A DNA stretch of 64,000 bases from Anaerolineae bacterium (lineage in GTDB: Bacteria; Chloroflexota; Anaerolineae; UBA1429): contig OY776562.1 in assembly GCA_963675785.1 (NCBI GenBank), forward strand, positions 1,536,001-1,600,000. Direction: 5' to 3'. Shown piece by piece: positions 637 to 53,333 of the stretch (positions are counted from its first letter, which is position 1; each line of letters starts with the position of its first letter). Position numbers and translations under genes: made by a program. The notes beneath the pieces were generated by a model, which was given only the letters and a program-made list of their open reading frames with translations, made no database searches and had not been told where the DNA came from.

Positions 637-642
637 ACCTAA
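577..642 (+). pseudogene. truncated 5' fragment of the 1917-2546 gene (MPLTLSEHLARLRATLGDSPT*)
   Basis: Same RBS and first 20 codons as 1917-2546, then ACC TAA overlapping the stop of the antisense TPR gene. Confidence 0.85.
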
Positions 643-1646
643 TCTTTGGCCGCCAACTCTCTTTCGAGCGCAGAGATGCAGTCTGTTATCTCCTTCACCC
701 AGTCGTCGTACCCAAGGGTTTCTGCAATCGCCAGTGCCTGCTGGTAACACTCTTGGGCCTCGGCCAAGCTGTTCAGGGTATAGTACAAGCTGCCCATGCT
801 CACCAGTATATCCGCCTCACCCTCCAGATAGCCCACCTCGTGGGCGGTTTCTAGTGCCTGCTCATAGAGCTCCAGCGCATGATACCTCTCGGCACGATCT
901 TCGGTGTATCTTGCGCGGTTGGTGAGCGTCATCACCTCGCTAACCCCGTCGCCCGACTCTCGGGCCAGCGTGAGCGCTTGCTCATAGATTTCCAGAGCAT
1001 CTTCCTTTGAGCTCATCCAGGCGATGTTGTTGAGTGCCATAACCTCACCTGCCGAGTCGCCGATTTCACGAGAAATCGCGAGCGATTGCTCATAGGCGTC
1101 CAGGGCCTTGTCGTACTGCAACTGATCGAGGTGCACCTGGCCAATAGTGTTGAGCAGCATCGCTTGGATCCTCGGGATGCCCAGTTCACGGATGACGTCG
1201 AGCGACTGCTCATAGAATTCCAGGGCCTTGTCATACTCTTCCTGCAAATACCACGTAGCGGCAATGTTCCAGAGCGAGTCCCCCTCGGCGTATGGGTCGT
1301 CCGCCTCGCGGGCTAGCGTCAGCGCCCGTTGGTAATAGGCCCGCGCCTTGCGGTAGCGGCCCTCCTGGTAGGCGGCATTGCCGGCGGCGGCCACATCCTC
1401 AAACGTGTCGTTCATTGTGGTTATAGCGACTGTCGTGGTGGCAAGACCATCCAGTCTTTCGCTCACCCAGGCCCGTGGCCGGGGATCTGTGGCCATTCCT
1501 ATCAGAAACAGAACCACAAGCAGGGCCGCAAAAAGAATGATCCTCCTGAAAAGCCATGATTCGTGCTGCCAGCAGTAGCGTCGCCCTGGCACGGCTCGTC
1601 TTTTACATGCGTCACCATTGCTCATCAAGAACTGGCATTGTTTCAT
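639..1646 (-). CDS. TPR protein with N-terminal C-C-C-H zinc-finger-like motif and one TM helix
   Basis: CQFLMSNGDACKRRAVPGRRYCWQH, hydrophobic IILFAALLVVLFLIGM, then MalT-type TPRs (ALEFYEQSLDVIRELG). Confidence 0.85.
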   Translation of the reverse strand: MKQCQFLMSNGDACKRRAVPGRRYCWQHESWLFRRIILFAALLVVLFLIGMATDPRPRAWVSERLDGLATTTVAITTMNDTFEDVAAAGNAAYQEGRYRKARAYYQRALTLAREADDPYAEGDSLWNIAATWYLQEEYDKALEFYEQSLDVIRELGIPRIQAMLLNTIGQVHLDQLQYDKALDAYEQSLAISREIGDSAGEVMALNNIAWMSSKEDALEIYEQALTLARESGDGVSEVMTLTNRARYTEDRAERYHALELYEQALETAHEVGYLEGEADILVSMGSLYYTLNSLAEAQECYQQALAIAETLGYDDWVKEITDCISALERELAAKD

Positions 1647-1905: not shown

Positions 1906-1976
1906 GGAGGTACCCCATGCCCCTCACCCTGTCCGAACACCTTGCCCGCCTGCGCGCCACCCTCGGCGATTCCCCC
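1906..1976 (+). repeat. 71-bp direct repeat, copy 2 (RBS and 5' end of the intact gene)
   Basis: Identical to 566-636. Confidence 0.97.
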
Positions 1977-2546
1977 GCCGAACTCTGGACCGACGACCAG
2001 CTCACCGACTGCCTGCGCACCGCCCTGGCCCGCCTCGATCAGTCCCTTCCCAGCCAGCAGCAAGCCGTCCTCACCCTCATCCCCGGCACCCCCACCGTCG
2101 ATCTCTCCTCCCTCGGCCCGGACGTCCGCCCCTACGCCGTCGTCTACCCCTACGACCCCGCTTCCCCGCAAAATTTTCAAAACCGTGTCGGCTGGCACCA
2201 AATCGAGAATATACTCCATATACTCGGTATACTAACTATAGATAAAATGTTGCTTCTTTGTTACGAATGCCCCTACGCCCTCTCTGGCCTGGATGGCGCC
2301 ACCTCAACCACCCTCCCCGCCCCCTACGAAGCCGCCTTGCAGGTGGGCGCCTGCGCCCAGGCCTTCAACCTGGCCCTCATCGGGGCCGTCAACCGTGCCG
2401 CCGTCAACCGCCCCTACGCGTATTACCGTGAGGCAAAGTCCGCTGCCGAAAGCACCTTCACCCGCTGGCTCGACGCCCAGGTGCGCCAGCAGTGCCAATC
2501 CCTCAACAACACCCTCTCCTGGGAGCAAGGAGCGCACCATGGCTAA
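1917..2546 (+). CDS. phage head-tail adaptor/connector-like protein
   Basis: GGAGG RBS; LxxLRxxLGD...WTDDQL...AL and STTLP...LxxGA patterns typical of adaptor proteins; first gene of an overlapping 3-gene operon. Confidence 0.6.
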   Translation: MPLTLSEHLARLRATLGDSPAELWTDDQLTDCLRTALARLDQSLPSQQQAVLTLIPGTPTVDLSSLGPDVRPYAVVYPYDPASPQNFQNRVGWHQIENILHILGILTIDKMLLLCYECPYALSGLDGATSTTLPAPYEAALQVGACAQAFNLALIGAVNRAAVNRPYAYYREAKSAAESTFTRWLDAQVRQQCQSLNNTLSWEQGAHHG

Positions 2547-2757
2547 AGTCGCCCGAGCCCGCATCATCAGCTACAACGAATCCACCCACCGCGCCGCCTT
2601 GCTGCTGCTGGCCAACCCCCAGGTGCGCCTGGAGGGCGTGCCCGTAGTGCGCGGCCTCACCGGCCTGGCCCCCGGCGATCATGCCGTGGCCCTCGTCTGG
2701 CCCGAGGCCAGCGCCCTGGTGTTGGCCCTCTGGGATGAGAGCGAGGTGGGCGCATGA
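2539..2757 (+). CDS. small phage-like beta protein (72 aa, MAKVARARIISYNES...)
   Basis: AAGGAG RBS, ATG at 2539, overlaps both neighbours; LEGVPV motif resembles baseplate/gpV-N OB folds (inference). Confidence 0.6.
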   Translation: MAKVARARIISYNESTHRAALLLLANPQVRLEGVPVVRGLTGLAPGDHAVALVWPEASALVLALWDESEVGA

Positions 2758-4697
2758 GAACCCTATCACCGACCTTGCAGGCGGCGCTGGCCGCCAAGCA
2801 GCCTCGCCCGGTCGTCTCGCTGGAGGTGGAGGACCACCGCCGACGCCTGCGCCCCCTGGGCAGCGGCGCCGCCTCCTCGCTGCCCCACCACATGCTGGCC
2901 CTGGGCGGCTCCCTGCTGCGCTGCTGTCTGCAAAGCGGGGGCCTCTATTGGGCCGTGGTGGCCGATCCCGCGGAGGAGGCCAACTGGCCGCCTGTTTGGC
3001 AGCTTGCGGTCAGCGATGGCGCCATCCAAGCCGGAGATGTGGCCCTTGCCGTGGCCCCCGCCCAGCCCGACCGTTGGCTGGTGGCTTATCAACAGCTCAG
3101 CGGAGCCATCCGGGTGGCCTACACCGAGGATGCTGGCACCACCTGGGCCACCCCTTTTACCGCCGCCACCGCCGAGGTGGGTGCCAGCATCGCCCTGGCG
3201 GGCAGCCTGGCCCTCTACAACGTGGGCGGCACCCTCTATGCGCGGCCCTGCCGCAACGACCTGGGCGCCCCCATCGCCTGGAGCGGGGGTCGGGCGCTCA
3301 ACCCCGATTTGCCAGCCTTTACGGCCGTGCAGGGTTTGGCCGCTTGCCCAGAGCCCGGCACCGCCGCGGGTTACCTCTGCTTGGCCTGCCTGGACGGCGC
3401 CCTTTACGGCTTTCGCTACAACCTGGCGGCGGAGACCCTGAGCGATCTGGCTGCCCTGCTGCCCGGCGGCGATGCCCCCGCATCGGCCTTGGCCAAACGC
3501 TGCCTGCCCGCCCTGTGCATCCGCAACACAGAGGTGTATGCCACCGTGCTAGATGCCTTTGGCGACAGCGACCTGACCGCCTGGATGCAGCCGCTGCTGT
3601 TGGGCGGCGAGGTGAGCCGGTTCCCGCGGATGGCGCGCCTGGCCGCGCCGGATATGGCCTGCACCCAGGAGGAGCGGGTGGTGCCGGCGGTGCTGGCCAG
3701 CGGAGAGCGGGCGGGGTGGCTGTTCCTGGCAGATCAGGGGCGGGGGATGGTTAGCCCGGCCTACAGCGCCGAGGAGAACCGCCTGGGGGCGCTGGTGCCC
3801 AGCCAGTTGAGCCTGCAGGTGGATGAAGGGGGCTCGCGATTGAGCGTGCAGGTGCCCAACTGCGCGGGGTGGCTGACCCCGCAAGAGCTGCCAGCCTGCC
3901 AGCCCCTGGCAGAGGTGCGGGCCACCCGCGGACTGTGGACGGCCAGCGGCGCGGAGACCAGCCCACTGCCTCCCCATTACCTGACGCGCGTGGAGGTAAC
4001 GGCGGAGGTGGTGCAGCTGGAGGCAGTGGACGGTTTGGGGCTGCTGGCGCGGGTGCACCCGGCAGAGACGCTGGTGTACCAGGGGCGCACGCTGGGCCAC
4101 ATTGCAGAGGAACTGGCGGCCTTGGCGGGCCTGGAAGTGGTGGGCAGCAGTGACGCGCTAGAGATGATGGTTCCCCGCTATGCCCTGGCACCGAGCCGCT
4201 CGGCGGGTGAGGCACTGGTGGCCCTGCTGCGTGACTACGGCCTGGGCGCCCGTTGCGACACCGCTGGCCGCCTGCAGCTAATCGACCTGGGCGCGGCCAC
4301 TACCGCCAACCTGACGCTGGCAGCGGGCGACCTGCTGGATTGGCGCTGGTCCACCACCCTGCCAGAGGCCAACACGGTGCGGGTGCTGGGCGGCGAAGGC
4401 GACGGCCTGCTGTGGAGCGCGGGCACGGGCGCGGGGCTGAACAGCGGCCTGCTGCTGCCGCAGGTGCTCACCGATGAGACGCTGTGCAGCGAGGCGCAGG
4501 TGCGGGCCAGGGCCGAGGCCCTGTGGCAGGCGGCGCAAGCCAGCACTGGCGGTGCAGAGGTGGTGCTGCGCCTGCACCCCGCCCTAGAGTGGGGCGACGC
4601 GGTAAGTGTGAGGGGCGTGGTGCGGCGGGTGCAAGGGCTGAGGGAGAGGTGGGTGGCAGGAAAGAGGGTGTGGCAGAGTGTGCTGGTGTTGGGGTAG
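2754..4697 (+). CDS. phage tail/baseplate hub-like protein
   Basis: ATGA overlap; MRTLSxxL N-terminus, LEAVDGLGLL, NTVRVLG and HPALEWGDxV C-terminus typical of tail-hub proteins. Confidence 0.6.
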   Translation: MRTLSPTLQAALAAKQPRPVVSLEVEDHRRRLRPLGSGAASSLPHHMLALGGSLLRCCLQSGGLYWAVVADPAEEANWPPVWQLAVSDGAIQAGDVALAVAPAQPDRWLVAYQQLSGAIRVAYTEDAGTTWATPFTAATAEVGASIALAGSLALYNVGGTLYARPCRNDLGAPIAWSGGRALNPDLPAFTAVQGLAACPEPGTAAGYLCLACLDGALYGFRYNLAAETLSDLAALLPGGDAPASALAKRCLPALCIRNTEVYATVLDAFGDSDLTAWMQPLLLGGEVSRFPRMARLAAPDMACTQEERVVPAVLASGERAGWLFLADQGRGMVSPAYSAEENRLGALVPSQLSLQVDEGGSRLSVQVPNCAGWLTPQELPACQPLAEVRATRGLWTASGAETSPLPPHYLTRVEVTAEVVQLEAVDGLGLLARVHPAETLVYQGRTLGHIAEELAALAGLEVVGSSDALEMMVPRYALAPSRSAGEALVALLRDYGLGARCDTAGRLQLIDLGAATTANLTLAAGDLLDWRWSTTLPEANTVRVLGGEGDGLLWSAGTGAGLNSGLLLPQVLTDETLCSEAQVRARAEALWQAAQASTGGAEVVLRLHPALEWGDAVSVRGVVRRVQGLRERWVAGKRVWQSVLVLG

Positions 4698-49606: not shown

Positions 49607-50581
49607 TCAGGTCACTTCGAGATAAGCTGGCATGATGGGAAGACCGATGGGCCGCGCACCTTTGGCTACATTACGCACGTACTCTGCCGCCGGAGTGCAA
49701 TCAGCGTCGAGTAGAGCTATCATGCAGGCATCCCAGGCGGTCTGCTCGGTTCTGCCATTGTTACAGAACCAGTTTTGCACGGCGCGGGAACCGGGTACTA
49801 AAGGAAGCGCGAGTTCTTTCGAGCCCTCGGGCGCCAGCCAGGCTACCATAGACGCCGCAGCCTCGGCGTCAGCAGCCAAGAACAGAATCACTTGCGGGCT
49901 TGTTCCATGGCGAGGATGCAAATTGTAGCGCGCATAGCCGACGATTTGACCAGCGCGTTCGAACACGCTGGCTCGTATATTACTCGTGTGGCTCATCCAG
50001 CCCAAAAGGGAATCACCGGGATCCACGGCCAGGTCCACATCAACGAACCAAGTACGCCAGAGTTTGGCCAAAGCTGGCGCATCAGCGGCCACAACGGGAT
50101 GCGTCTCTAAGGTTATGGGCGCAGGAACGACGGATACTGTTACATTGCATGCGCCAAACATGCGCGGCTGATAGCCAAACCGCGGATAATAGCTGGGATG
50201 GCCCCAAAGAAAAGAGAGGGCATAACCACGCTCGACGGCTCGACGATGCCCCTCGCGCATCAAAAGGGTGCCCACACCCTGCCGCTGCCAATCGGCAGCA
50301 ACTACCAAAGGGGCCAACAGCACAGCAGGTACAACCTCCCCGCCGATGTACATGGTCAAGGGATTAAAGAGGACCTGGCCGATAACGCGATCTTGCACAC
50401 AGGCCGCCAGCGCCAGCTCAGGGTCGAACTGTGGATTATGTCGAGCCATATCTACTAGCGCCACCTCGGGAACAAAATCGTATGCGGGTGGCATGGCCGT
50501 GCCTGGCCCAAAAGCCCGCGCGTTGATCTCGGCAATGCGACTATAATCAGCGGGTGTCTCGCTGCGAACTAGAATGTTCAT
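49607..50581 (-). CDS. GNAT family N-acetyltransferase
   Basis: LAPL.V...QRQGVG, GHPSYYPRFGY. Confidence 0.9.
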   Translation of the reverse strand: MNILVRSETPADYSRIAEINARAFGPGTAMPPAYDFVPEVALVDMARHNPQFDPELALAACVQDRVIGQVLFNPLTMYIGGEVVPAVLLAPLVVAADWQRQGVGTLLMREGHRRAVERGYALSFLWGHPSYYPRFGYQPRMFGACNVTVSVVPAPITLETHPVVAADAPALAKLWRTWFVDVDLAVDPGDSLLGWMSHTSNIRASVFERAGQIVGYARYNLHPRHGTSPQVILFLAADAEAAASMVAWLAPEGSKELALPLVPGSRAVQNWFCNNGRTEQTAWDACMIALLDADCTPAAEYVRNVAKGARPIGLPIMPAYLEVT

Positions 50582-50713
50582 GCGACTCCTCGTGTATTGT
50601 TTCGATGCCTTCAGTATAGTCCTCTGCCGCACCTGTACCACTCCGCAAACGCTGTATGGTCAGGCGCTGCAACAGTTTTTGTTCATGTGGTGAACGCTGA
50701 ATAGACTCTCGTT

Positions 50714-51352
50714 TCATGATACCCTCCCTTTACTACCATGCTTGGCAGTCAGACGCTGACGCAAACGTTTGCGCGCTGAATAGATACGGCAATAAGCGGC
50801 GTTGGGGTTGAGTAATTGCAGCTCTCGGGCAATTTGCACCCCAGAATAGCCCATGACCACACGCATATACAGAGCGCGGCGATCCAAAGCTGGTAGCTCT
50901 GCCCAGGCCTCGTGCAGGGCATCCTCCAGCTCGGAAGAATCCGCCTCGGGCACCTCAATGAGTGCCTCCAGGGCATGGTATGACAGGCGTTGAGCGTCAC
51001 CCTCACCCACATAGGCATCGAGGGCCAACACAGTAGGATCGACAGGCTCTTCGGGTGGCTGCCATAAACGATAGGGCTTGCGACGGATGATGCGCCGAGC
51101 ACCGCCCCACAGCACGCTACGCCAGCGCTCCCACAGCGGCTCGAGGTCATCGCAATTGCCGCCCTCTTGCAGCCAACGGCGCACGGTATCATGAAACTCG
51201 ATATAGAGATCTTGCAAGAGGTCATCGCTGGTGTAAAGGCCGCCATCGCCGCGATTGAGGCGGTGCATGGTGCGCCCACAACAGCGCAGGGCCGTGGCGC
51301 GGGCCTGCGGCCAGAGCTGATTGACGATTCGGGTCAGAGCATTGGTAGGCAT
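50714..51352 (-). CDS. ECF-like sigma-70 family factor
   Basis: DDLLQD (region 2); LP..DRR...GYS..QIA..L......RIYSARKRLR (region 4.2); AAAGGAG RBS. Confidence 0.8.
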   Translation of the reverse strand: MPTNALTRIVNQLWPQARATALRCCGRTMHRLNRGDGGLYTSDDLLQDLYIEFHDTVRRWLQEGGNCDDLEPLWERWRSVLWGGARRIIRRKPYRLWQPPEEPVDPTVLALDAYVGEGDAQRLSYHALEALIEVPEADSSELEDALHEAWAELPALDRRALYMRVVMGYSGVQIARELQLLNPNAAYCRIYSARKRLRQRLTAKHGSKGRVS

Positions 51353-51414
51353 GTTGCTGCTCCTTTCGTATCGGCCTCACGGCCGATCTTCATGCAACAC
51401 GTGCAAACACAAAC

Positions 51415-52887
51415 TTAGTATTGTGCTGACAGGGGGTCGGAGACCTCGATCACGGCGGATTCGGTGGGCAAAGACACCGCACGAGCCTCCAACACGGCAC
51501 ACAAAGCTGCCGAAATGAGCAGGTCATCGTGAATGGTGGGATCAACCACACCCCAGCGCATGCGCTTGAGGGCGCCGTCATAGACCTCGTAGGTGGCGGC
51601 GCGCACCTGCTGCCAAAAGGCGGCATACTGCTCGCTGCCGTCATCGGCGTGATCGAGAAAACGGCCCGACGAGCAGATACCGAGAAATCCCCAACCGAGG
51701 TCGCTCTTGACGCCAGCGTTGAAAGTGACGGGATTGATCCGTTGTCCCAGATGACGCTGCAGCGAAGAAGCCAAGCCAGCGCCTAAACCGGTGGCATCCA
51801 CCACCAAGGTTTGGGCCTGCCAGCAGTCGGCAAGGGCCAACAGCACGCCCAACAGCTCATCCTGGTAGCGGCCCGTCCACAAGTGGCGATCCATCACCAG
51901 ATAGCGGTTCATGCCTTGCTCAGTCTGGTCCAGTTCAATAACGGTGACGGCGGTGCTATCTTTGCGAGGCTGAGCCTCGCGCAGGGCCGCATCGCGCAAG
52001 GATTCCTCGGCGCCGCCCGCTACGTCGATAAGCAGAGCGTAACACCGCCCTTCGGTGGGGCCGCGTTGACGCAGGTGGCTGCCTTGCATCAAGGCACGCA
52101 CATCCACGGAAAACATACCAGCGGCCTCGTCGATCTCTTCCAGGCAGTATTGGGTCTTGATGAGGGGATGCTGACGGCCCAAGCGCTCGATCTCGCCGCG
52201 CACAAAGGTGCCATAGGCGGGCACGCACTCTGCAACCTGCTGCCAAGGCACACGAAAGACGCGCAGTTGGCCATCGCGCAGCTCTTGCGCCTCCAAAACG
52301 CGCATGGTGCGGGCCAGCAGAGTGTTACTCGTCCAGGCGGTGCCCCAGAGCACGGTGGTGGCATTGGTGCTGGCCGCCATGGGCCGAAAGTCGCGGTTCC
52401 AGATGGTCTCATCGATGTTCTGGGCCTCGTCGGCCTCTAGCAACAGATCGGCGGTGGCGCCCACCACGTTGGCCTGCAGTCCTGCCGAATAAAAGGAGGC
52501 CCTGGCCAGGCCTACACGCAGCATACGCCCCTGTTCGCGCACAGGTTTGAGGCCGGGGAGGCGGCTGCCCTGCAGCAGGGATTCCAAGCGCATGAGGCTG
52601 GTGTAGGCCTGGGGCTGAAAGGTGGGCGCGGCTTTGACAATAGTGCCGCCCCGTCGATAGGCGCGAGCCAGCAGAAAAGCCTCTACATGGGAGGCGGTCT
52701 CGTTTTTGCCGGCCTGGCGTGACATCATCACAGCAAAGGTGCGACCTTGACCAGTAAGCGCCGAGTGGACGATGGCAGCCGCTGGTTCGACTTGATAAGG
52801 GCGCAAGGTGCGGCCCAGCACTATACGAGAAAAAAGCATCGGGCTGGCTAACACGCGGCGCAAGGCGTTATGGCTAATGTCGGGCAC
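51415..52887 (-). CDS. terL: phage terminase large subunit
   Basis: LRPYQ, Walker A SRQAGKNET, Walker B LEADEAQ, GTAW coupling motif, RNaseH acidic motifs IDVAG, VVDATGLG, HDD. Confidence 0.9.
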   Translation of the reverse strand: MPDISHNALRRVLASPMLFSRIVLGRTLRPYQVEPAAAIVHSALTGQGRTFAVMMSRQAGKNETASHVEAFLLARAYRRGGTIVKAAPTFQPQAYTSLMRLESLLQGSRLPGLKPVREQGRMLRVGLARASFYSAGLQANVVGATADLLLEADEAQNIDETIWNRDFRPMAASTNATTVLWGTAWTSNTLLARTMRVLEAQELRDGQLRVFRVPWQQVAECVPAYGTFVRGEIERLGRQHPLIKTQYCLEEIDEAAGMFSVDVRALMQGSHLRQRGPTEGRCYALLIDVAGGAEESLRDAALREAQPRKDSTAVTVIELDQTEQGMNRYLVMDRHLWTGRYQDELLGVLLALADCWQAQTLVVDATGLGAGLASSLQRHLGQRINPVTFNAGVKSDLGWGFLGICSSGRFLDHADDGSEQYAAFWQQVRAATYEVYDGALKRMRWGVVDPTIHDDLLISAALCAVLEARAVSLPTESAVIEVSDPLSAQY

Positions 52888-53266
52888 GGCCAGCCTCCTC
52901 GTCCAATTCTTTCAACACTTGGTCGAACAAGGTATCGAGTCCGGCATCGGTGGGTTGTAGTTGCTTGCGAGCTCGCAACAGTTGGATCACGCGTGCGGTC
53001 GAATCGTTCCAGGCACGCAGATACTGCGCCGGGCTGGTTGAACGAGAATCTCCCGCGCGGCGCAGTTCGGCGATCCAGTCGCAGAAATAACGGCGAGCCT
53101 GGAGTAGATCGACCAACTCTTGCTCGATGACGCAGCTGTCATCGTCCTCAGCCAAGGCACGTGCGAGCGCCTCCGTGCCCTCCGAGGCGCGCATCAACGC
53201 GGCGAGGGCATCATGTTGAGCTGCATGGCGTCCTTGCTGCCCGGCATTCCGAGTCTGTTTGGACAT
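52874..53266 (-). CDS. helical protein, putative terminase small subunit
   Basis: GGAGG RBS before MSKQTR; overlaps the terL start; position and helical C-terminus only. Confidence 0.5.
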   Translation of the reverse strand: MSKQTRNAGQQGRHAAQHDALAALMRASEGTEALARALAEDDDSCVIEQELVDLLQARRYFCDWIAELRRAGDSRSTSPAQYLRAWNDSTARVIQLLRARKQLQPTDAGLDTLFDQVLKELDEEAGRARH

Positions 53267-53284
53267 GCATCCTCCTTCATGAAT

Positions 53285-53300
53285 TAGAACATTTGTTCTA
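53285..53300. promoter_or_regulatory. LexA (SOS) box TAGAAC-ATTT-GTTCTA
   Basis: Perfect GAAC-N4-GTTC palindrome, the Gram-positive/Chloroflexota-type LexA site, between the -10 and the RBS. Confidence 0.8.
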
Positions 53301-53304
53301 GTCC

Positions 53305-53333
53305 ATAATATGTCCAAACCAGGGGAATGTCAA
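53305..53333 (-). promoter_or_regulatory. sigma70 promoter of the terminase operon (TTGACA-N17-TATTAT)
   Basis: tgtcaa 53328-53333 and ataata 53305-53310 on +, 17-bp spacer. Confidence 0.8.

Follow-up and report, generated by a model that had tools for sequence, protein, structure and literature searches.

What is a large terminase gene for in a bacterial chromosome when no portal or capsid gene lies next to it, when a sigma factor gene follows it and when a presumptive LexA operator covers its predicted transcription start? This question is raised by an operon (locus P) in a 64,000-nucleotide stretch of DNA, hereafter the window, from an Anaerolineae bacterium of the Chloroflexota. The original prediction saw in it the switch of an SOS-inducible gene transfer agent (GTA), in which DNA damage derepresses packaging genes together with a sigma factor that activates structural operons elsewhere. 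In this study, we have analysed the operon, the rest of its genome and its relatives, and we report portal, capsid, adaptor and tail protein genes at two further loci, H and T. On balance, we consider it somewhat probable that the operon is the SOS-controlled packaging and regulator arm of a three-locus, phage-derived particle system, domesticated in the manner of a GTA or of PBSX.

The terminase operon, its promoter and its regulator

Three ORFs in the same direction on the minus strand make up the operon, which was confirmed: a small helical protein of 130 aa (52874-53266, its ATG behind GGAGG), the large terminase TerL of 490 aa (51415-52887), composed of an ATPase part and a putative RNase-H-like nuclease part, and an ECF-like (group IV-like) sigma factor of 212 aa (50714-51352). 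As first described, the small gene and TerL overlap (by 14 nt) and the sigma gene follows after a gap of 62 nt, in which a scan for terminator-like sites found none. A 56-aa ORF on the same strand (50547-50717) overlaps the sigma stop codon by 4 nt; it has no Pfam match, host genes come directly after the sigma gene in the related genomes G075 and G116, with no counterpart to it, and we regard it as a doubtful gene. Pfam also recovers the GNAT and response regulator genes that had been noticed nearby, and neither the GNAT gene nor a 496-aa neighbour has a syntenic counterpart in five genomes of family f1, the family of this genome. The operon occurs in contigs of four sequencing runs, whole in two and fragmented in the two others. 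One whole copy is identical, the other has 12 differences in 2901 bases with no indels, and one of the two fragmented copies is ~95% alike.

The identity of TerL was borne out by PHROGs (phrog_38, terminase large subunit, 5.8e-9) and by a tblastn match to an annotated phage terminase (5e-36). Its Pfam match is weak (Terminase_6C, E 1.1e-3, 19.5 bits, below the cut-off of 22.6), some of its homologues carry PF17289, and its profile had 0 matches among PDB sequences. Residues R57, Q58, G60, K61, N62, E151, D153, E154, G182, T183, W185 and T186, and further D288, D364, H453, D454 and D455, are invariant in 18 homologues; we take these to be the Walker A, Walker B, coupling and nuclease motifs. 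The small protein matches nothing in Pfam or PHROGs, and its family gave nothing useful against PDB sequences. It has orthologues in G150, G116 and G075, and it aligns by hhalign (probability 62%, E 7.7e-5) with the c1 family of small proteins, which is present in 56 of 80 loci from the IMG/VR viral collection and opens related clusters; an N-terminal Cys-rich motif is common to the G150 orthologue and the c1 family. We treat it as a divergent c1 member and, judged by position only, as a candidate small terminase or packaging specificity factor.

The sigma factor assignment was borne out for region 4: Sigma70_r4_2 (PF08281) scores 27.5 bits (cut-off 25.7), PDB entries of ECF sigma factors match at 1.8e-10 in region 4 only, and the PHROGs match is phrog_1740. 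The protein in the window has no Pfam region-2 match, and its homologue in G057 has both Sigma70_r2 (31.7 bits) and Sigma70_ECF. In a five-sequence alignment Y40, D44, Q47, D48 and F53 are invariant, in a stretch that presumably corresponds to sigma region 2. Among 201 genomes of the class this family gave 9 matches, 8 of them strong (E <= 1e-24), and 7 of these 8 stand directly after TerL or portal genes. The sigma gene is translationally coupled to or overlaps TerL in three of four f1 genomes, and a word-based homologue search with it returned the self-match only. Judged from these genes, the sigma factor is specific to this element family.

Upstream of the small gene, also on the minus strand, lies a sigma-70-type promoter (53305-53333), with the -35 hexamer TTGACA at 53333-53328, a spacer of 17 nt and the -10 hexamer TATTAT at 53310-53305. 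It matches in 11 of 12 positions, and the region holds 3 promoter-like sites where 0.9 are expected. The presumptive LexA operator TAGAAC-N4-GTTCTA (53285-53300), a perfect palindrome, starts 4 nt downstream of the -10 hexamer; both elements are therefore present as predicted within 53285-53333. By a base-composition estimate, ~0.14 copies of this 16-mer are expected in the 3.22 Mb of the genome, and 2 occur, each directly behind a sigma-70-like -10 hexamer and ahead of a gene; the second copy stands before an SSB-family gene (C1:1388396), where the promoter is laid out identically. Related boxes stand before the genome's own lexA (whose product was checked to be LexA) and before SSB-family, ogt and RNase_H_2 genes, which agrees with the proposal that the box is a LexA operator. 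Because recA has no canonical box in this genome, the LexA regulon is known only in part.

The box recurs upstream of orthologous genes, as had been anticipated. Of 30 loci, 7 have a perfect GAAC-N4-GTTC no more than 1.3 kb ahead of TerL, and the 4 loci of family f1 are all among these 7. In 20-kb loci (13 sites in 490 kb in total), boxes stand at the cluster starts in families f13, f17, f53 and f41, and in family f18 one lies 127 bp before the portal gene; among IMG/VR loci, 11 of 76 have a box within 4 kb. Most likely, LexA would bind this box, which lies across the transcription start, and so repress locus P.

Portal, capsid and tail genes at two further loci

The terminase had been called an orphan, and this is true in that no portal or capsid gene adjoins it and locus P has no head module of its own. 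It is not true of the genome: a portal gene and a gene for a 706-aa fusion of protease/scaffold and major capsid protein form locus H (C1:1528356-1531371), 4.6-7.6 kb to the left of the window and 55-61 kb from the operon. Misleadingly, a search of this genome with the Pfam models for portal and capsid (PF05133, PF04860 and PF05065) came back empty, and the two genes were recovered by tblastn with relatives' proteins. The portal matches phrog_10963 (3.6e-29), the fusion matches PF25209 (8.5e-30) and phrog_4523 (1.1e-44), and family HMMs retrieve the two at 5e-138 and 1.5e-155. Absence of portal and capsid genes from the whole genome would have counted against the original prediction; both are present. 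More generally, an apparently orphan terminase can belong to a split system, to whose other parts the standard models are blind.

Locus T lies at the left end of the window on the plus strand. The tail adaptor (d2, 209 aa, 1917-2546) was found by its family HMM (3.2e-27) and matches PF24175 SU10_adaptor (E 9.6e-9, 36.4 bits, cut-off 27), as do 6 of 12 family members; it is also an Atlas lead, its gene adjoins the capsid gene in relatives, and its profile gave nothing useful against the PDB. A 72-aa ORF follows (2539-2757), its stop overlapping the next start (ATGA); it has no Pfam match, and G075 and G116 have a gene of 74-77 aa at the same place. The tail protein (d3, 647 aa, 2754-4697; family HMM 1.1e-28) has Asp-box (BNR) motifs in its N-terminal half, a stretch that matches sialidases at 1.7e-6. 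It has no Pfam match over cut-off and no match to an SU10-like nozzle or needle, and Atlas gives leads only (Chloroflexota 'phage tail protein' clusters 0.98, Sipho_Gp37 0.91). It is a candidate nozzle, hub or receptor-binding protein, with the nozzle reading a guess from sequence. With these two gene pairs, the dispersed structural operons that had been predicted are in hand.

The three loci lie within ~61 kb. Of 10 genes tested between them, 9 have cellular-type domains (among them TPR, BNR, GNAT, CotH, glycosyltransferase, ABC transporter and 5'-nucleotidase) and the tenth is the tail protein itself. We reject a single 60-kb prophage, because the interior genes are cellular and because orientation and spacing differ among relatives.

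In the mechanism that we propose, DNA damage would remove LexA, TerL with its small partner and the sigma factor would be made, the sigma factor would switch on loci H and T, and the assembly of a short-tailed (podovirus-like) capsid and its loading with DNA would follow. In this genome the LexA box is found at locus P only, loci H and T having none, and the original claim that the sigma factor activates the structural loci drew no support from their promoters. In 9 upstream regions before portal, adaptor and tail genes of four f1 genomes, no promoter motif rose above shuffled controls, in a test of low power: the best bipartite word occurs in 5 of the 9 sequences, and the shuffled maximum was 5 or 6 in 25 of 30 runs. 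Likewise, 10-mers in common and hairpins in this genome made no case for sigma targets. In genus g3, a rare palindrome, TTCAC-N4-GTGAA, is present at both loci, which indicates a dimeric regulator there and not a sigma factor.

Layout, inheritance and rival explanations

The same split is seen in G075, G116 and G150, with TerL and capsid genes 132 kb or 53 kb apart or on separate contigs. Across f1 the loci are 46-132 kb apart in changing orientation, too scattered to leave the chromosome in one piece. In a search that covered tyrosine recombinases and a subset of the neighbouring genes, loci P, H and T came without integrase, replication or repressor genes, and the whole genome has only two tyrosine recombinases, at 1.19 and 3.05 Mb. 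Because these genes were not found and because the layout is inherited within the family, we read the set as a domesticated, host-controlled particle system of the GTA or PBSX kind and not as a live prophage.

An unlikely reading, though one with weight, is that the genes are inert leftovers of an old LexA-controlled temperate phage of Anaerolineae, scattered by insertions and rearrangements and forming no particles, with the box a former phage switch. Relatives elsewhere are contiguous phage-like clusters, many opening with a LexA box and some with extra phage genes such as a Dam methylase and a depolymerase, as such a past would leave. Insertions separate capsid and adaptor genes in G000, G150 and G116, and family HMMs found in the f1 set none of the connector-like proteins d7, c8 and d6 of fuller clusters, nor was a lysis gene found; this reduced set may be unable to build a working particle. 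Furthermore, the GC content, which had been called host-like, is not: the three genes of locus P have 59.6-62.1%, beyond the 95th percentile of 1.5-kb windows of the genome (mean 53.6%, 5th-95th percentile 48.5-58.9%), and the element genes together are outliers at 60-71%. Decay, however, is not what the genes themselves suggest. In four genomes spanning three genera, each of the 27 ORFs checked is open; the operator and the promoter are perfect; and near-identical strains keep the box and the open frames of locus P. Between G075 and G116, at dS of 0.6-1.1, dN/dS is 0.20-0.46 for the system genes and 0.13-0.57 for flanking host genes, comparable values that point to purifying selection. Finally, the TerL and capsid loci are retained or lost jointly: in the sample of 201 genomes, TerL is found in 44 and the capsid gene in 46; 35 genomes have both, 9 have TerL alone, 11 have the capsid gene alone and 146 have neither, and two other f1 genomes are without both.

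It is improbable, in our estimation, that the genes belong to a selfish mobile element, either a satellite-like or helper-dependent element, such as a capsid-forming island, or a phage with its remaining genes elsewhere, escaping at a time set by the SOS response. Its relatives do look mobile in places: 272 are in the IMG/VR collection, many are found on short contigs or as multiple copies (G178 has 6 matches), and type C loci encode an Xre repressor together with a protein that has a DnaA_N-like domain. The distribution is also patchy (44 of 201 genomes). Here too, the f1 genomes speak otherwise, with genes too far apart and too variable in orientation for joint excision, no tyrosine recombinase close to the loci, and an adaptor and tail protein of their own, unlike capsid-only islands. 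A satellite or capsid-forming island would hold integrase, repressor and replication genes in one excisable island, and no such island is seen. The flanks are stable between G075 and G116, which belong to one genus and share flanking genes at both loci; a comparison with empty sites added little, as G180 is also without the flank marker and G032 shares just one flank gene. The concern that the orthologues would be sporadic and inside complete prophages was thus justified as to patchiness and the many phage-like clusters, but not as to the f1 genomes, which have the split set without an integrase.

Very improbable is a third reading, that TerL and the sigma factor were repurposed for an SOS-triggered, particle-free cell function such as DNA cutting or abortive defence and that the capsid loci are unrelated survivors: it would suit the restriction of the LexA box to locus P, the capsid fusion of G057 (which has TerL, portal and sigma genes), matched solely in its N-terminal protease part, and G012, with TerL and portal genes and no capsid match, but it sits badly with the strong co-occurrence of TerL and capsid genes and with all canonical relatives holding TerL in a head module (portal gene beside it in 73 of 80 IMG/VR loci, capsid gene in 64 of 80).

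How far the domesticated system that we favour has been inherited vertically is a matter on which the evidence divides. In a quick TerL tree, all 8 host families with at least 2 rows form one clade each, and host-family labels change 13 times, the lowest number possible, against a mean of 23.2 for shuffled labels, with 0 of 200 shuffles as low; in this comparison, which the original prediction had asked for, the TerL phylogeny follows host families. This tree, the dN/dS ratios and the open ORFs point one way, and the patchiness, the GC offset and the TerL identities between families point the other. The GC offset makes a later acquisition possible; across the four f1 genomes, element GC tracks host GC. 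TerL of this genome is 56-60% identical to f1 relatives and 57-59% to family f13, so that f1 is not set apart, and RecA has nearly the same pattern (75-80% and 75-77%).

Comparison with known particle systems

Our results fit a GTA in two respects. Chromosomal head, tail and packaging genes occur in this genome and its f1 relatives with no genes for replication, integration or lysogeny among the neighbours scanned, and the predicted LexA operator would place them, in silico, under a host regulator. Of the original GTA-like interpretation, the LexA box and the dispersed loci found support in silico, the sigma link drew none of a direct kind, and the host-like GC was not confirmed. The further-reaching proposal, that Anaerolineae have a GTA of their own through independent domestication of a short-tailed phage, with three loci, LexA gating the terminase operon and the sigma factor relaying the SOS signal, is for now tentative and rather doubtful. 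If it is true, DNA damage would set off packaging and export of chromosomal DNA in Anaerolineae. To our knowledge, GTAs demonstrated by experiment are confined to a few lineages, chiefly of Alphaproteobacteria. In a full-text literature search, the titles and opening lines of abstracts held no description of such a system in Chloroflexota, and the GTA literature that surfaced there fits the mostly alphaproteobacterial picture. How general the domestication of phage particles is across bacteria is a wider question, to which this operon brings a concrete candidate, from a poorly studied phylum abundant in sludge, sediments and the subsurface, with all of its parts mapped (operator, packaging genes, regulator, capsid, adaptor and tail protein) and with a simple proposed circuit from LexA through the sigma factor to the structural loci.

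The closest parallels are with RcGTA of Rhodobacter capsulatus and other alphaproteobacterial GTAs, which are likewise chromosomal sets of phage-derived genes for head, tail and packaging that lack replication and integration genes. Published accounts describe RcGTA genes as dispersed over several loci, as here (PMC5026251), and as being under host control that includes an SOS/LexA circuit and a dedicated activator, GafA, which acts via RNA polymerase (PMC6363796, PMC9638019). Inheritance along host lineages is a further likeness, and the phylum, Chloroflexota here, is a difference. RcGTA has a siphovirus-like tail and is controlled by LexA indirectly, whereas the genes here predict a short tail of the SU10-adaptor type and an apparently direct action of LexA on the terminase operon. 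The regulator is GafA in RcGTA, with no homologue in that role here, and an ECF-like sigma factor behind TerL in our system. The defining traits of a GTA, particles that carry random host DNA in amounts too small to encode the particle and that deliver it to recipient cells, are a prediction here; random packaging and transfer have been shown for RcGTA.

PBSX of Bacillus subtilis is similar in another way. Its positive control factor Xpf is an element-linked, sigma-like factor of group IV (sigma2 plus sigma4) (PMC10141391). PBSX is a DNA-damage-induced, defective particle encoded in the host chromosome, a likeness that here is predicted from genes. Its genes are contiguous and include an Xre repressor, and its tail is contractile, in contrast to the three loci, the short tail and the lack of any visible element repressor in f1; and xpf precedes the PBSX late operon, whereas the sigma gene here follows the terminase. 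By role only, the sigma factor may also be compared with the RinA, ArpU and LtrC superfamily, small phage regulators that are needed to transcribe the packaging/morphogenesis operon starting at terS (PMC3152322, PMC3753634). Their genes lie upstream of terS in complete phages, unlike the regulator here, which is downstream of TerL and would have to act in trans on genes tens of kb away.

Two phages complete the comparison. The tail of Escherichia phage SU10 (Kuravirus) is built of portal, adaptor, nozzle and needle (PMC9509320). The adaptor family is the part matched here over its curated cut-off, and TerL, portal and capsid are from other families. The prophage GIL01 of Bacillus thuringiensis uses host LexA, rather than a CI-type repressor, on a phage promoter; phages of that type are complete and self-replicating, whereas in our system LexA would gate the packaging genes of a split, non-replicating set.

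The terminase operon and its presumptive operator

The operon described in the original prediction is real: between 50714 and 53333 on the minus strand, three open reading frames run in the same direction behind a promoter and a palindromic box. The first encodes a 130-residue small protein (52874-53266), its ATG preceded by GGAGG, and overlaps by 14 nucleotides the gene of a 490-residue large terminase, TerL (51415-52887). A 62-nucleotide gap, in which a scan found no terminator-like site, separates TerL from the gene of a 212-residue sigma-like protein (50714-51352). The promoter scan placed TTGACA-17-TATTAT at 53333->53305 on the minus strand (11/12 matches), and TAGAACAAATGTTCTA lies at 53285-53300 on that strand, 4 bases downstream of the -10 hexamer, as the window's single perfect AGAAC-N4-GTTCT. 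In silico, all three genes are predicted to be driven by this strong promoter, whose start is covered by a LexA-type operator. The operon's neighbours are a GNAT acetyltransferase, whose likeliest start is the ATG at 50581, preceded by GAGGAG, rather than the GTG at 50641, and a receiver-domain protein; a 56-residue frame overlapping the GNAT gene (50547-50717) is probably not a gene.

TerL scored 19.5 bits against Pfam Terminase_6C, under the cut-off of 22.6, and matched phrog_38 'terminase large subunit' (E 5.8e-9) and the annotated terminase of Bacillus phage vB_BboS-125 (33% identity, 71% query coverage, E 5e-36). In the protein collection 8000 candidates were scored and 2276 proved homologous; identity is 50-66% for the best of them, of which those carrying a name are Chloroflexi or Anaerolineae. 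The residues invariant in an 18-homologue alignment (R57, Q58, G60, K61, N62; E151, D153, E154; G182, T183, W185, T186; D288; D364; H453, D454, D455) we take to be the Walker A, Walker B and coupling motifs and the nuclease acidic residues. A sequence search of solved structures with the family profile gave no match. The 212-residue protein matches Sigma70_r4_2 above cut-off as well as phrog_1740, and in the PDB its profile aligns with region 4 of ECF sigma factors (1.8e-10); Y40, D44, Q47, D48 and F53 are invariant among five sequences, and a homologue in the relative G057 matches Sigma70_r2 and Sigma70_ECF. The small protein, which has orthologues in three relatives, matched nothing among Pfam and PHROG families. 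There is moderate support for its kinship with a small-protein family, c1 (hhalign probability 62%, E 7.7e-5), which provides the first gene of most related clusters (56/80 IMG/VR loci). Judged by its position only, it would be the small terminase.

The box was also placed in the context of the whole genome, a single contig (C1) of 3.22 Mb and 53.6% GC. GAAC-N4-GTTC occurs there at 39 sites, no excess over control spacings (60 and 57), and only two of the 39 have the form TAGAAC-N4-GTTCTA. The second of these, outside the window at C1:1388396 (locus L047:3396-3411), is the identical 16-mer TAGAACAAATGTTCTA, with TTGACA-N17-TATAAT upstream and a 132-residue SSB-family gene downstream (PF00436, 3.7e-10), which appears to encode a second, separately SOS-controlled SSB-like protein. 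An AT-spacer box precedes a gene (C1:2620754-2621407) whose product matches LexA structures from end to end (3k2z, 3.6e-27), and such boxes also stand before genes for an ogt-type methyltransferase, an RNase_H_2-superfamily protein and a DUF3800 protein. recA (C1:2783288-2784331, locus L076) lacks a canonical GAAC-N4-GTTC box in the preceding 330 bases, where GAAC and GTTC words occur at other spacings. We regard the box at 53285-53300 as a presumptive LexA operator.

Dispersed structural loci

The operon had been called an orphan, a description that fits its immediate neighbourhood only. Pfam portal and capsid models matched nothing in the genome, but the proteins of relatives' loci, used as queries, located both genes 4.6-7.6 kb left of the window, 55-61 kb from the terminase operon. 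The portal (C1:1528356-1529501) matches phrog_10963 (3.6e-29). The gene after it encodes a 706-residue capsid fusion (C1:1529251-1531371), in which a major capsid protein makes up the C-terminal half (PF25209, 8.5e-30); over its full length it is similar to 'major head and protease' proteins (phrog_4523, 1.1e-44). A third locus lies within the window at 1917-4697: an SU10-type tail adaptor (1917-2546; PF24175, 36.4 bits vs a cut-off of 27), a 72-residue frame and a 647-residue protein (2754-4697) whose counterparts in relatives come after the adaptor (family HMM 1.1e-28). The latter carries Asp-box motifs, and its atlas neighbours are labelled phage tail proteins, which we treat as a lead only. 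Seven consecutive GC-rich hairpins lie in the 350 bases before the portal (C1:1528006-1528355, L053:12006-12355), and intergenic DNA of the relative G150 has similar hairpin words; these could represent a family of repeats or a structured leader.

A single prophage spanning these loci was rejected. Nine of the ten inter-locus genes tested have cellular-type domains (TPR, BNR, GNAT, CotH, glycosyltransferase, ABC transporter, 5'-nucleotidase), the tenth being the tail protein itself, and the genome's only two tyrosine recombinases lie at 1.19 and 3.05 Mb; the three loci are therefore not one prophage. Genes for a 794-residue SMC_N/AAA_21 ATPase (C1:1533614-1535998) and for a TPR protein (window 639-1646) lie in the 6-kb stretch between capsid and adaptor genes, and the pair looks like a defence-like insertion.

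Distribution among relatives

In a class sample of 201 genomes, TerL was found in 44 and the capsid fusion in 46: 35 have both, 9 TerL alone, 11 the capsid alone and 146 neither. About 10 genomes with both would be expected under independence, a descriptive figure as kin are not independent. Within the window's own family, f1, G075, G116 and G150 have both genes and G032 and G180 neither. All three positive relatives have the split layout: the small gene, TerL and sigma gene followed by host genes (nitroreductase, amine oxidase and Band 7 protein in G075 and G116) and, at a second site, portal, capsid, small frame, adaptor, small frame and tail protein. The distance from TerL to capsid is 132 kb in G075 and 53 kb in G150, the two are on separate contigs in G116, and their orientations vary. 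Every frame checked across the four f1 genomes is open (27/27). G075 and G116, which belong to one genus (g3), have flanking genes in common at both loci; there, by Nei-Gojobori, dN/dS is 0.20-0.46 for the system genes (amino-acid identity 51-76%) and 0.13-0.57 for seven flanking host genes (48-81%), with dS, at 0.6-1.1, near saturation. A quick maximum-likelihood tree was built from 30 TerL sequences; all 8 host families that contribute two or more of them come out as single clades, and the 13 label changes are the minimum (shuffled mean 23.2; 0/200 shuffles as low). Identities poorly separate f1 from other families: TerL is 56-60% identical to the window's protein in f1 vs 57-59% in family f13, and RecA 75-80% identical to the genome's own in f1 vs 75-77% in families f2 and f29. 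Based on these genomes, selection appears to maintain both the SOS operator and the scattered structural loci in f1.

A few features of single relatives were also noted. In G116, an N6_N4_Mtase DNA methylase and a ResIII helicase-type gene, about 1000 residues each (L034:12144-18088), sit among conserved host genes just downstream of sigma and are absent there in G075. G150 encodes a 411-residue Xre-type HTH-Peptidase_M78 (ImmA/IrrE-like) fusion about 1 kb downstream of sigma on the same strand (L031:6920-8155). Elsewhere in the class, G012 and G057 (L033, L035) have TerL and portal; the capsid query matches nothing in G012 and only the N-terminal protease part in G057, the gene being either lost or of another family.

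Several observations weigh against a simple domestication story. GC content had been judged host-like, whereas the element genes have 59.6-71.1% vs 53.6% for the genome, in which just 0.9% of 4-kb windows lie above 60%. On the other hand, element GC is 3-8 points over the flanks in each of the four f1 genomes and tracks host GC from 54% to 72%. The f1 gene set is also reduced: the connector-like families d6, d7 and c8 of fuller clusters have no match in it, and no lysis gene was identified in it. Finally, the distribution in the class is patchy, with many relatives on short contigs or multi-copy, as expected of active phages.

The usual order in 80 IMG/VR loci is small-TerL-portal-capsid-...-adaptor-tail protein; some have small-portal-capsid-d7-c8-adaptor-TerL-...-tail protein, found in G134, where the cluster spans 15 kb and includes an amidase. 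Some relatives resemble fuller phages, one with Dam methylase and depolymerase, and one TerL relative adjoins a portal of the SPP1 type together with a different capsid gene. LexA-type boxes open clusters in families f13, f17, f53 and f41, and an f18 genome, with TerL on a separate contig, has one 127 bp ahead of its portal. With a box at most 1.3 kb upstream of TerL in 7/30 loci and at most 4 kb upstream in 11/76 IMG/VR loci, LexA control would be frequent in the family, not universal. The sigma family, with 9 matches in the 201 genomes (8 strong) and none across the 80 IMG/VR loci, is rare and seems element-bound: of the strong matches, four in f1 and two in f45 directly follow TerL, one in f11 directly follows portal, and one more is in f11.

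Proposed control and particle

The idea of an SOS-inducible gene transfer agent stands in part: the SOS operator and dispersed structural loci are present, while a sigma relay and GTA function are hypotheses. The SOS response would derepress the small-TerL-sigma operon, and the sigma factor might then, speculatively, switch on the capsid and tail loci. Going by the adaptor family, the particle would have a short tail, and its role could be random DNA transfer, killing or DNA release. Its nearest counterparts among known systems are the multi-locus RcGTA and PBSX, which has the sigma-like Xpf. Unlike these, the present system belongs to another phylum, has a predicted short tail and a LexA gate that seems to act directly on the terminase operon, and places its sigma gene behind TerL.

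The capsid and tail loci of the window's genome have no LexA box, even allowing one mismatch, and nine regions upstream of portal, adaptor and tail genes in the four f1 genomes yielded no common promoter motif above shuffled controls. In genus g3, a rare palindrome, TTCAC-N4-GTGAA, present as a single copy in the entire 3.2-Mb window genome, occurs in 3/4 upstream regions: before both the terminase operon and the portal in G116 (L034:8612, L068:7616) and before the portal in G075 (L067:12574), whose terminase operon has the similar TTCGC-N4-GCGAA. Its occurrence at both loci points to another regulator, and suggests that in this genus a dimeric regulator may be common to the two.
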